Of a stretch of DNA of 64,000 nt, positions 34,690 to 37,503 are shown in pieces. The stretch's first letter is position 1. Each line of letters begins with the position of its first letter. This stretch comes from Escherichia coli (lineage in GTDB: Bacteria > Pseudomonadota > Gammaproteobacteria > Enterobacterales > Enterobacteriaceae), in the NCBI RefSeq assembly GCF_024700885.2, contig NZ_CP117016.1; one strand, 5' to 3'. Below the pieces are notes generated by a model. It made no database searches, had not been told where the DNA came from, and saw only the letters and a program-made list of their open reading frames with translations. Made by a program: the position numbers and the translations under genes.

Positions 34690-35583
34690 ATGAACATAGT
34701 GATCACCGGAGGGACGGGATTAATTGGTCGCCATTTGATTCCACGTTTGCTGGAGCTGGGCCATCAAATCACGGTAATGACGCGTAACCCGCAGAAAGCC
34801 AGTTCTGTTCTCGGCCCTCGGGTGACACTATGGCAAGGGCTTGCCGATCAAAGCAACCTCAACGGCGTTGATGCGGTAATCAACCTGGCCGGAGAACCGA
34901 TTGCTGATAAACGCTGGACTCACGAGCAAAAAGAGCGTCTCTGCCAAAGCCGCTGGAATATCACGCAAAAACTGGTCGATTTGATTAATGCCAGCGACAC
35001 GCCACCGTCGGTACTCATTTCCGGCTCGGCAACGGGCTTTTATGGCGACTTAGGTGAAGTGGTGGTTACCGAAGAGGAACCGCCGTATAACGAATTTACC
35101 CATAAACTCTGCGCCCGCTGGGAAGAAATTGCCTGTCGGGCACAAAGTGACAAAACGCGAGTGTGCCTGCTGCGTACCGGCGTAGTGCTGGCACCGGATG
35201 GCGGTATTCTCGGTAAAATGCTGCCGCCGTTTCGTCTTGGCTTGGGCGGGCCGATTGGTTCCGGTCGGCAGTATCTGGCCTGGATTCATATTGATGATAT
35301 GGTCAACGGCATTCTCTGGCTGCTGGATAACGAGCTGCGCGGGCCATTTAATATGGTTTCGCCCTACCCGGTACGCAATGAACAATTTGCCCATGCGCTC
35401 GGTCATGCGCTGCATCGCCCGGCCATTTTGCGCGTCCCTGTGACCGCCATTCGACTGTTAATGGGCGAATCTTCAGTACTAGTATTAGGTGGACAACGAG
35501 CATTGCCTAAACGGCTGGAAGAAGCGGGTTTTGCGTTTCGCTGGTACGATTTAGAAGAGGCGCTGGCGGATGTTGTTCGCTGA
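34690..35583 (+). CDS. yfcH: NAD-dependent epimerase/dehydratase-family protein
   Basis: 297-aa ORF with N-terminal GGTGxIG Rossmann motif. Confidence 0.92.
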
Positions 35584-35630
35584 TGTGGTTTACTGCAAAC
35601 ATCCGCCAGTTAACTCCTGGTGTTACAGAA

Positions 35631-36533
35631 TTAGTGGCTTTGCGCGATAAGATCGTCTGGTGAAAGTCGGGTCACCATCATAACTAACTCTCTGTCTAAA
35701 CCTCTCTCCAGCATCTCCTGAGCAATACGCAGGGCTTCTTCGCGTTTGCCCAGAATTAATCCATCATTCCGGCCTTCTTCACGTAATCTGTCAGCAATAG
35801 TCATCAGTTTCTCCTTTTCTTGTGGTGCGCGTTCCGCTATCTCACCAATAAATGCACGGAAACGCTGGGCATCCCCCGTTTGTAATACGTAATTAAACAG
35901 GGCTTTTAGCTGTCTGTCATTAGTGTTCCCTGTAACTAGCAGCGAAACAATTTGGTCGACTAATCCCAACAGATCGCGCTGACGAATATGTTTCTGAATT
36001 AACTCCAACAGCGCCATTTTGCGATGTTGCATAATCTCGTCATCTGGCACCACGGTAATATCCACCAGCGGAAAAGCCGATGAATAAATTTTGCGGGCAA
36101 TCGCAGGCTCGGCAAATTCATCAAGCCAGCAGAGTGAATATGGATAAGGGCTTCTGCAACCATGATAAAACAGCATCGGGATCACTAATGGAAGCTCTTT
36201 ATAGCCCGCATCAAGATGGTTTTGCATCGCCGCAATGGAATAGCGCATCATGCGAAAAGCCATTAATTCCTCTGGCTTACTTTGGTGCTCTATCACCACA
36301 TAAATATAACCCGCTCCCTCCTGCGTTTTCACAGACCACAAGAGGTCGGAATAATATTGCCGCAGGTCTTCATCAATAAAACTGTTTGGTTCCAGTTTAA
36401 GCGTTGTTAAATCACACAGTTTGCGCAGCGGCGCGGGAAGATGAATATCAATAAAATCCCGCGCGGTGTCTGGATGGCGTAAAAAAGATTTAAATACCGC
36501 GTCATGCGGCGTGGAAGTTGTCGATATTGTCAT
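35631..36533 (-). CDS. rpnB: Recombination-promoting nuclease RpnB (transposase_31 / PD-(D/E)XK family)
   Basis: 300-aa ORF; matches E. coli YfcI/RpnB from memory. Confidence 0.88.
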
Positions 36534-36729
36534 GGCGTTCCGTCACCCCTCAAATTTAAGATAACGCGACAATAACCACGATTAACCCCCAATGCAGCAG
36601 GCAGTTTTTATCTTTGGACAGCGAATTCAGAACTATTTTTAGCGGACTGCAACTTTTACATTTCAGCGGAAGCTGACTCGCAAATTCCCCTTGAAAATAC
36701 TCCGGCAGCGTTAGCCACCGGAGGGGGAA

Positions 36730-37503
36730 TTATTTCAGCGATCCCTTAAGGAACTGTTGCAGACGAGGACTTTGCGGGTTACCGAATAACTGTTCTGGCG
36801 CGCCCTCTTCTTCTATTTTCCCCTGATGGAGGAAAATGACGTGAGTAGAAACATGGCGAGCAAAGCCCATTTCGTGAGTCACTACCACCATGGTTTTCCC
36901 CTCTTCTGCCAGTTGCTGCATAATGCGCAGCACTTCGCCTACCAGTTCAGGATCGAGCGCCGAGGTAGGTTCATCAAACAGTAAAACTTCCGGTTCCATC
37001 GCCAGCGCCCTTGCGATGGAAACACGCTGTTGCTGACCGCCGGAAAGATGCACCGGATATTTCCCCTGCGCACGTTCGTCTATCCCGACTTTCGCCAGAT
37101 ACTTCACCGCCCGCTCGCGCGCTTCCTGCTTGCTCAGGCCCAACACCTGAATCGGCGCTTCCATGACATTTTCCAGCACCGTCATATGGCTCCAGAGATT
37201 GAAGTGCTGGAATACCATCGTCAGGCGTGTGCGCAGTAAGCGCAGCTGATTTTTATCGGCGACTTTGAGTTGACCATCTTTGTCGCGCACCAGATTGATC
37301 GTCTGGCCATTGACCACGATCGATCCTTCGCTCGGTTTTTCGAGGAAGTTAATGCAGCGCAGAAAGGTACTTTTCCCCGATCCCGACGATCCGATGATGC
37401 TTATGACATCTCCGGCATTCGCTTGCAGTGAGACCCCTTTCAGCACTTCGTGTTCGCCATAGCGTTTGTGCAAATCGATAACGTTTAATTTATTCTCGGA
37501 CAT
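36730..37503 (-). CDS. hisP: Histidine/lysine/arginine/ornithine ABC transporter, ATP-binding subunit
   Basis: 257-aa ORF; Walker [13 protein letters not shown] signature LSGGQQQR. Confidence 0.96.

Follow-up and report, generated by a model that had tools for sequence, protein, structure and literature searches.

rpnB of Escherichia coli, between yfcH and hisP, as a probable toxin-antitoxin gene encoding a nuclease and a nested antitoxin in one reading frame

The stretch of DNA analyzed here (the window) comprises 64,000 nucleotides of Escherichia coli (contig NZ_CP117016.1, assembly GCF_024700885.2) and contains rpnB, a member of the Rpn (YhgA-like) family located between yfcH and hisP (Table 1). 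The end of yfcH and the rpnB stop codon are 47 bp apart, and 196 bp separate hisP from the rpnB start. A first-pass annotation, made from the sequence alone, had already recognized a 300-amino-acid (aa) open reading frame (ORF) between yfcH and the his transport operon as rpnB and had given the same length for the hisP-rpnB spacer; the coordinates bear out both statements, and the protein is 98% identical overall to RpnB of K-12 (YfcI, b2305). The coding sequence (CDS) is also named rpnB in RefSeq. The surrounding genes, yfcC-yfcH, folX, hisJQMP, argT, ubiX, and purF, are found likewise in strain 1190 (NZ_CP023386.1), to which positions 35400..37000 of the window are 100% identical. In the set of 5,426 complete E. 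coli genomes on which all population counts given below are based, this region had a match in 5,425.

The family assignment made by the first-pass annotation is confirmed by the profile of PF04754 (Transposase_31/YhgA-like; E 2.2e-91, profile positions 1-202 of 203) and by TIGR01784 (Rpn family nuclease/putative transposase), for which the score was 189.4 bits (cut-off 52.1). The same family is also described as COG5464, and 8,450 representative clusters were collected in a family search with RpnB (E <= 0.001). With the equivalog models of RpnA and PRK09956, the scores reached 465-466 bits (466 bits for the NCBIfam RpnA model) and thereby remained under their cut-offs of 583 bits. In the N-terminal nuclease domain, the identity amounts to 99.2% with K-12 RpnB, 70.4% with RpnA, 56.8% with RpnC, 68.3% with RpnD, and 68.7% with RpnE. 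Since the protein matches the family and is closer to K-12 RpnB than to any paralog, the gene is therefore rpnB. The five K-12 rpn paralogs are dispersed around the chromosome, as had been stated beforehand for these genes, while a tblastn search of the 64-kb window revealed rpnB as the sole Rpn-like sequence. ORFs on the opposite strand within rpnB (e.g., 36080..36379 on the plus strand, 99 aa) were taken as chance ORFs.

Table 1. Features of the rpnB locus (positions are those of the window).
Feature	Position	Strand	Remarks
rpnB, full-length CDS (RpnB_L)	35631..36533	-	300 aa plus stop; ATG start, TAA stop; ORF list, PF04754, TIGR01784, RefSeq
Transposase_31/YhgA-like domain, aa 8-209	35907..36512	-	Pfam envelope
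Codons of D11, D63, E82	36501-36503, 36345-36347, 36288-36290	-	positions required in RpnA
Codons of Q84, R94, PDDE	36282-36284, 36252-36254, 36036-36047	-	positions shared with RpnA
rpnB_S, Met244 to His300 plus stop	35631..35804	-	57 aa; probable antitoxin/oligomerization domain
Shine-Dalgarno AAGGAG of the internal start	35811..35816	-	6 nt ahead of the ATG at 35804..35802
Hypervariable segment of four-residue units, codons 255-264	35742..35771	-	protein and DNA alignments
Interior rpnB segment surviving as relic in rpnB-less strains	36060..36089	+	found by aligning the rpnB-less allele with the window (blastn-short)
yfcH (TIGR01777 oxidoreductase)	34690..35583	+	left neighbor, convergent with rpnB
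hisP	36730..37503	-	closes the hisJQMP transport operon; upstream neighbor on the rpnB strand
hisP-rpnB intergenic spacer, 196 bp	36534..36729	-	hisP terminator; presumed rpnB_L promoter and 5' untranslated region
hisP intrinsic-terminator-like hairpin	36700..36723	-	10-bp stem, loop TAAC (4 nt), tail TATTTTC; terminator scan
12-bp perfect inverted repeat (CTGGCGGATGTT / AACATCCGCCAG)	35563..35609	.	overlaps the last yfcH codons and stop

All rpn genes of E. coli were recently described as genes within a gene, in which an in-frame internal start yields a small antitoxin, RpnS, directed against the toxic full-length RpnL; the existence of RpnS is supported by an internal promoter and an internal transcription start site from differential RNA sequencing (dRNA-seq) (Zhong et al., 2023; PMC10400941). 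For K-12 RpnB, the same study detected both chromosomally encoded products, RpnB_L and RpnB_S, via tagging, reported greater toxicity of RpnB_L when RpnB_S was missing as well as neutralization of the K-12 allele by the cognate RpnB_S, and showed that RpnB-dependent SOS induction was blocked by RpnB_S, but not by RpnA_S (PMC10400941). This nested rpnB_S, together with the hypervariable four-residue units it contains, is the chief known feature of the gene and had been overlooked by the first-pass annotation.

In the window, RpnB_S begins at Met244, because the published "stop at D29 of RpnB_S" (PMC10400941) corresponds to K-12 D272 only if translation starts at M244. The Shine-Dalgarno sequence in front of this codon forms a duplex of -8.7 kcal/mol with the 3' end of the 16S rRNA, ending 5 nt from the ATG, whereas the primary rpnB start is preceded merely by a G-rich, Shine-Dalgarno-like GAGGGG 12 nt before its ATG. 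All K-12 paralogs have Met244, as do 61 of 72 diverse homologs. K-12 itself agrees with the window in Met244 and the Shine-Dalgarno sequence as well as in the neighbors yfcH and hisP and both spacers (47 and 196 bp). Residues 244-299 matched the crystal structure of RpnA_S (7TH0, chain A residues 1-48) in a phmmer search (E 0.034), and a Foldseek comparison with the same entry gave a probability of 0.99, a target TM-score of 0.74, and 39% identity, the tail of RpnB being of only moderate confidence in the full-length model, with a predicted local distance difference test (pLDDT) score of 58-82. A scan for sigma-70 consensus promoters yielded no site on the minus strand near Met244. Among nine Escherichia rpnB sequences, synonymous variation was lowest at codons 226-250 (window 35784-35858), with 0.07-0.21 extra codons per site in comparison to 0.3-0.9 across most of the gene (a small sample, compared without statistics). 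This would fit an overlapping constraint imposed by the internal promoter or ribosome-binding site, although it is only a hint. The top matches of a sequence search against the PDB were designer pentatricopeptide repeat (PPR) proteins, with E values down to 8.5e-15. These matches cover aa 257-289 (window 35667-35765), and as a single repeat reaches an E value of only about 30-65 and the score is summed over 10 identical repeats, they were rejected as a summed-repeat artefact. The helix-turn-helix of the long allele in this stretch (aa 257-289) does resemble the consensus PPR motif.

The N-terminal part of the protein is that of a probable nuclease. In RpnA, the substitutions D11A, D63A, E82A, and Q84K abolish all phenotypes and R94A alters them, and D63A was additionally found to destroy the DNase activity in vitro (Kingston et al., PMC5350276). 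All five residues and the PDDE motif are located at the same positions in RpnB of the window and in all K-12 paralogs. Within a set of 73 diverse homologs (34-75% identical), D11 is conserved in 73, D63 in 72, E82 in 70, Q84 in 62, and R94 in 63. The AlphaFold model of the whole protein had a pLDDT of 70.9, and a fold search with it was swamped by helical-repeat proteins owing to the helical C-terminal half, so that this search was discarded. A model of residues 1-165, built by AlphaFold2 on a deeper alignment from the 73 homologs, reached a pLDDT of 92.4 and displays an alpha-beta-beta-beta-alpha-beta order, the first three strands being antiparallel; D63 is found on the second strand and E82-H83-Q84 on the third. 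The PD-(D/E)XK core that the first-pass annotation had proposed therefore holds for the required residues, all of which are kept; as regards the fold, the predicted layout is consistent with the canonical core but not decisive. Mg-dependent DNA endonuclease activity in vitro has been described for RpnA alone, while toxicity and SOS induction have been described for K-12 RpnB (PMC5350276; PMC10400941). RpnB of the window may be expected to be active as a nuclease as well.

The most conspicuous difference to K-12 lies within RpnB_S. The window allele contains RNDG-LILG, i.e., two four-residue units, at the position at which K-12 has REEG-AMQG-KHEE with one unit (AMQG), the K-12 sequence being 12 nt shorter. 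The window protein accordingly has 300 aa, in comparison to 296 aa of K-12 RpnB, and it also carries E276 in place of K-12 D272. The additional four residues are located 11 residues past Met244 and begin at residue 12 of RpnB_S. Differences by repeats of four amino acids have been reported for helix 1, 8-20 residues after the RpnS start, and all E. coli Rpn proteins have been described as varying in their tail within the species; in RpnC, a single added four-residue repeat abolished cross-neutralization (PMC10400941). Similar units (KQEG, LQQG, IHQG, KLEG) occur one to six times in homologs from Citrobacter, Salmonella, and Klebsiella, and homolog lengths rise in steps of four (296, 300, 304 and so on up to 320). 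By analogy to these published cases, matching between S and L may be allele-specific in RpnB, too.

The allele frequencies in E. coli were determined with exact-word probes. The window-type segment (56-nt probe) was found in 709 and the K-12-type segment (44-nt probe) in 3,523 of the 5,426 genomes, and the 3' end of rpnB was present in 4,755. Compared to the window, the 200-nt 3' region is at least 99% identical in 59 genomes, 95-99% in 1,163, 90-95% in 2,625, and 80-90% in 908. A third allele class, represented for instance by strain 155, has AMQG followed by a helix 2-3 that diverges strongly (EKGFDHEVILTL); its last 114 nt show 82-86% DNA identity to the other alleles, as opposed to 92-98%. 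At least three RpnB_S allele classes thus exist within E. coli. The length polymorphism is also found beyond this species: the long form occurs in E. whittamii, Escherichia sp. MOD1-EC7003, and E. marmotae, the short form in E. albertii and Escherichia sp. E1V33. The DNA of the N-terminal nuclease domain, in contrast, clusters by species, and strains 103605 (long allele) and 155 (short allele) are 99.0% identical in this domain. Given a nuclease domain that follows the species and tail alleles that cross species borders, the tail has therefore either been decoupled by recombination or represents an old polymorphism. Several single-member metagenome proteins are chimeras consisting of an RpnC-, RpnA-, RpnE- or other Rpn-like N-terminus and an exact RpnB C-terminal half, joined at conserved stretches; they could have arisen through misassembly of paralogs or through real recombination between them.

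The two parts of the gene also differ in the selection acting on them. When the window is compared with K-12, 18 synonymous and two non-synonymous differences are seen in codons 1-243, with a synonymous divergence (dS) of 0.12 and a ratio of non-synonymous to synonymous divergence (dN/dS) of 0.03, whereas codons 244-300 contain two synonymous and six non-synonymous differences (dN/dS about 0.85, from small numbers) in addition to the four-codon indel. The toxin part is hence under strong purifying selection, and the antitoxin/interface part changes fast. The dS of the flanking genes is in the same range (yfcH 0.09, hisP 0.13, hisM 0.16). A dN/dS of 0.03 together with a dS equal to that of the neighbors indicates that rpnB is functional and vertically inherited with its neighbors within E. 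coli.

All these observations make it highly probable that rpnB is a toxin-antitoxin module in which two products are obtained from one frame, the nuclease RpnB_L and the nested antitoxin RpnB_S. RpnB_L would act as a DNA endonuclease of the PD-(D/E)XK type, show little sequence specificity, and damage the cell's own DNA if left unchecked. RpnB_S would be translated from the internal Met244, making use of its own strong Shine-Dalgarno sequence and, judging from the published dRNA-seq data, its own internal promoter. Being the same three-helix C-terminal domain that is carried by RpnB_L, it would bind RpnB_L through this domain and thereby block the nuclease, and the number and sequence of the four-residue (xxxG) units in helix 1 would decide which S fits which L. 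A likely role of such a module would be abortive or direct phage defense, set off by a disturbance of the S:L balance or interaction. For the chromosomal rpnB, an antiphage function can be suggested by analogy: protection against phages has been demonstrated solely for RpnP2, against T-even phages (PMC10400941). The PADLOC-DB 2.0 models gave no match with the RpnB protein, and no defense-island context was seen among the neighbors of rpnB.

The closest known counterpart is K-12 RpnB, the ortholog of the window gene, which differs in the hypervariable helix, in length and at the residue pair E276/D272. RpnA (YhgA) shares with RpnB of the window the Pfam family, the functional residues, the numbering, and the internal Met244. 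It differs, however, in its sequence (70% identity for the nuclease domain, 49% for the tail), in its locus between feoC and bioH, and in the failure of RpnA_S to neutralize RpnB (PMC10400941). RpnP2 of ECOR13 has, according to its description in the literature, the L/S gene-within-a-gene architecture in common with rpnB (PMC10400941); it is plasmid-borne and its defense has been demonstrated, whereas rpnB is chromosomal, located among housekeeping genes, and has no reported phage phenotype. Classical type II toxin-antitoxin systems are similar in that a toxic enzyme is restrained by a small, labile, helical, directly binding and cognate-specific protein (PMC10400941). Unlike in these systems, the antitoxin of rpnB is the toxin's own C-terminal domain, made from an in-frame internal start, so that changes in the antitoxin also alter the toxin. 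With TnsA-type PD-(D/E)XK proteins, RpnB would share the nuclease fold class, and rpnB also shows presence or absence as a single gene between genera. Insertion sequence (IS) elements and TnsA systems differ from rpnB, which is devoid of terminal repeats, target duplication, multicopy spread, and a partner transposase.

Concerning its distribution, rpnB holds the yfcH-hisP position in the window, in strain 1190 and K-12, and in representatives of five Escherichia species or clades. Both neighbors flank it in E. coli (4,755 of the 5,426 genomes) as well as in E. whittamii, Escherichia sp. E1V33, and Escherichia sp. MOD1-EC7003, while the E. albertii contig contains only the hisP side of rpnB. 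It is retained in 88% of the complete E. coli genomes and in every Escherichia species sampled. Other genera were checked by what adjoins their yfcH, and rpnB was not found at yfcH-hisP in the Salmonella, Citrobacter, and Klebsiella loci examined. In the Salmonella locus, the gap between yfcH and hisP is empty and 51 bp long (locus positions 4395-4445), the junction of Citrobacter freundii is occupied by a GNAT acetyltransferase (locus positions 4455-4994), and that of Klebsiella by two small unannotated ORFs and a GNAT gene (locus positions 4610-5999). A scan of contigs with the RpnB protein yielded Escherichia-level relatives and one metagenome-assembled genome of Erwinia only. The yfcH-hisP junction is therefore a variable slot in Enterobacteriaceae, in which, of the genera sampled, Escherichia alone was found to carry rpnB; this is in line with the description of the gene as wedged between yfcH and the his operon in the first-pass annotation. 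The best Rpn matches outside Escherichia were rejected as rpnB orthologs, as they are located at feoC-bioH in Salmonella (the rpnA locus), at phr-dtpD in Citrobacter, and at yicS-eamA in Kluyvera. The Salmonella enterica protein closest to RpnB (66% identity, 308 aa, locus positions 4001-4927) lies between feoC and bioH, i.e., at the position of rpnA in E. coli, and similarity alone would therefore mis-assign the orthology of Rpn paralogs. A C-terminus of RpnB with 91% identity was also encountered on a 380-bp contig (coverage 0.9) of Novosphingobium sp. BW1, very likely as a contamination of this assembly with Escherichia DNA.

An allele without rpnB is present in 670 of the E. coli genomes (12%), in which yfcH and hisP are 158 bp apart (e.g., TUM9975, locus 3185-3342). 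This site retains a 21-nt relic (CGGAAACGCTGATGAATAAAT) that corresponds to the interior of rpnB (window 36069..36089, 19/21 identical); relic and junction together align with 27/30 identities in blastn-short (E 5e-6), as a collinear match in the same orientation. The left deletion junction falls at a 9-nt imperfect direct repeat, ATCC(G/A)CCAG, one copy of which (ATCCGCCAG) occupies 35601..35609 and the other (ATCCACCAG) 36060..36068. The right flank of the deletion restarts at 36624, and six nucleotides (ATAGAT) lie between the relic and this flank. The retained internal relic implies that these 670 strains lost rpnB via deletion and do not represent an unoccupied ancestral site. One of the strains concerned, SK1144, belongs to phylogroup B2, and the deletion genomes may conceivably form a single B2 clone such as ST131.

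Instead of a toxin-antitoxin module, rpnB could encode a regulated housekeeping nuclease, involved in DNA repair, degradation of foreign DNA or processing of DNA under stress, with RpnB_S as auto-inhibitory element and without any part in phage defense. Such roles are allowed for by Zhong et al. (PMC10400941), even though the paralog RpnP2 investigated in the same study does defend against T-even phages. The occurrence in 88% of the complete E. coli genomes and in all sampled Escherichia at a fixed housekeeping locus, with no defense genes among the neighbors, would be in accordance with this explanation, and so would the strong purifying selection on the nuclease domain. Nevertheless, the gene is dispensable, having been lost in 670 genomes, and at least three deeply divergent alleles and a length polymorphism across species would be unexpected for a housekeeping enzyme. 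Altogether, we regard this explanation as quite improbable.

Equally improbable, in our estimation, is the view favored by the first-pass annotation, namely that rpnB descends from an ancient mobile element as a domesticated transposase and now promotes RecA-independent recombination and gene acquisition. The names of the models (Transposase_31 in Pfam and, as a sister model in NCBIfam, "ISNCY family transposase") and the patchy distribution of the Rpn genes (PMC10400941) would suit this view, but Zhong et al. argued that Rpn proteins are not transposases and found no evidence of transposition (PMC10400941). Overexpression of RpnB raised RecA-independent recombination 19-fold (PMC5350276), and the claim of the first-pass annotation that the Rpn family promotes such recombination is thus well founded for overexpression; deletion of rpnA-D, on the other hand, left basal recombination unchanged (PMC5350276). 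That rpnB is a single-gene insertion seen only in Escherichia, with an empty junction in the Salmonella locus examined, might also point to a mobile origin. Yet neither the junctions of rpnB-less E. coli nor that of Salmonella contain a duplicated target, and a repeat search around rpnB returned short repeats at chance level only, without bracketing terminal inverted repeats or duplications of the target site. In addition, the gene is present once in the window and at a median of one and a maximum of two places per genome, none of its 5,504 places is on a plasmid, and the dS shared with the flanking genes speaks for vertical inheritance within E. coli. The transposase view moreover accounts for neither the internal antitoxin nor its hypervariability. 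The predicted fold is that of a PD-(D/E)XK nuclease and not of a transposase, and to our knowledge, no autonomous transposase with such a fold is known. The reading of the gene as a mark of mobile-element domestication is not supported.

A third explanation, that rpnB is an inert and decaying relic, can be set aside almost entirely: the 670 deletion genomes, the pseudogene state of K-12 rpnD, the annotation of RpnE as inactive, and the existence of truncated or partial RpnB clusters are outweighed by an intact frame of 300 aa with a dN/dS of 0.03 over 243 codons, by catalytic residues that are all kept, and by the detection of both products from the K-12 chromosome (PMC10400941).

rpnB is consequently better described as a toxin-antitoxin/defense gene than as a tamed transposase, the earlier framing being outdated and incomplete. 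This is of relevance for annotation, which is misled by the labels "Transposase_31" and "putative transposase" on Rpn genes, and in which one annotated rpnB CDS stands for two proteins of opposing activities, the small one being missed by standard gene calling. The gene, its family, the nested antitoxin, and the hypervariable repeats have already been published. What is added here is modest and comprises the frequencies of the RpnB_S alleles in 5,426 genomes, the position between yfcH and hisP that is found only in Escherichia among the sampled genera, and the origin of the rpnB-less strains by deletion.

Within the toxin-antitoxin reading, one may tentatively go a step further and speculate that the RpnB_S segment is under long-term balancing or diversifying selection, with rpnB being an actively selected specificity locus whose matching S/L types resemble those of self-incompatibility systems; we consider this rather doubtful at present. 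In such a case, the nuclease domain would follow the species tree and recombine freely against the tail alleles, and the rpnB deletion in the B2 lineage would represent an escape from the cost of the specificity locus. As within-species variation of the tail was known before, the novelty of this proposal would be confined to the allele frequencies and the trans-species aspect.

With respect to the flanking spacers, the hisP hairpin is a stable structure with a folding energy of -28.9 kcal/mol (z -4.64, none of 200 shuffled sequences being as stable), which an outer helix stretches to about 36684..36731. Its stem is invariant across Escherichia, and the spacer as a whole is 93% conserved (seven Escherichia sequences). 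The first-pass annotation had thus correctly recognized that a terminator-like hairpin exists, but had placed it 7-9 nt away, at about 36691..36716, which overlaps its actual position. It had also located the rpnB promoter in the spacer, which is plausible from the gene layout, though no sigma-70 consensus is found on the minus strand. The corresponding scan of 35500..36800 found no such site on the minus strand of the spacer and no more hits than in shuffled sequences, inspection by eye revealed just two to four matches out of six per hexamer, and a search of 35300..37000 against Rfam yielded no family at E <= 1. It is nonetheless reasonable to presume that the promoter of rpnB_L lies within the spacer, because a terminator is located upstream and RpnB was expressed from "its own promoter" by Zhong et al. 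(PMC10400941); the alternative would be read-through from hisP.

On the other side of rpnB, the inverted repeat in the 47-bp convergent gap is situated 21 nt beyond the rpnB stop codon. Direct reading of the sequence revealed no T-run beside the repeat on either side; a hairpin shared by the 3' ends of both genes is possible. The pair of yfcH and rpnB is among the convergent overlapping transcripts ("excludons") of K-12 (PMC12288877). The end of the right arm of this repeat coincides with the left end of the rpnB deletion.

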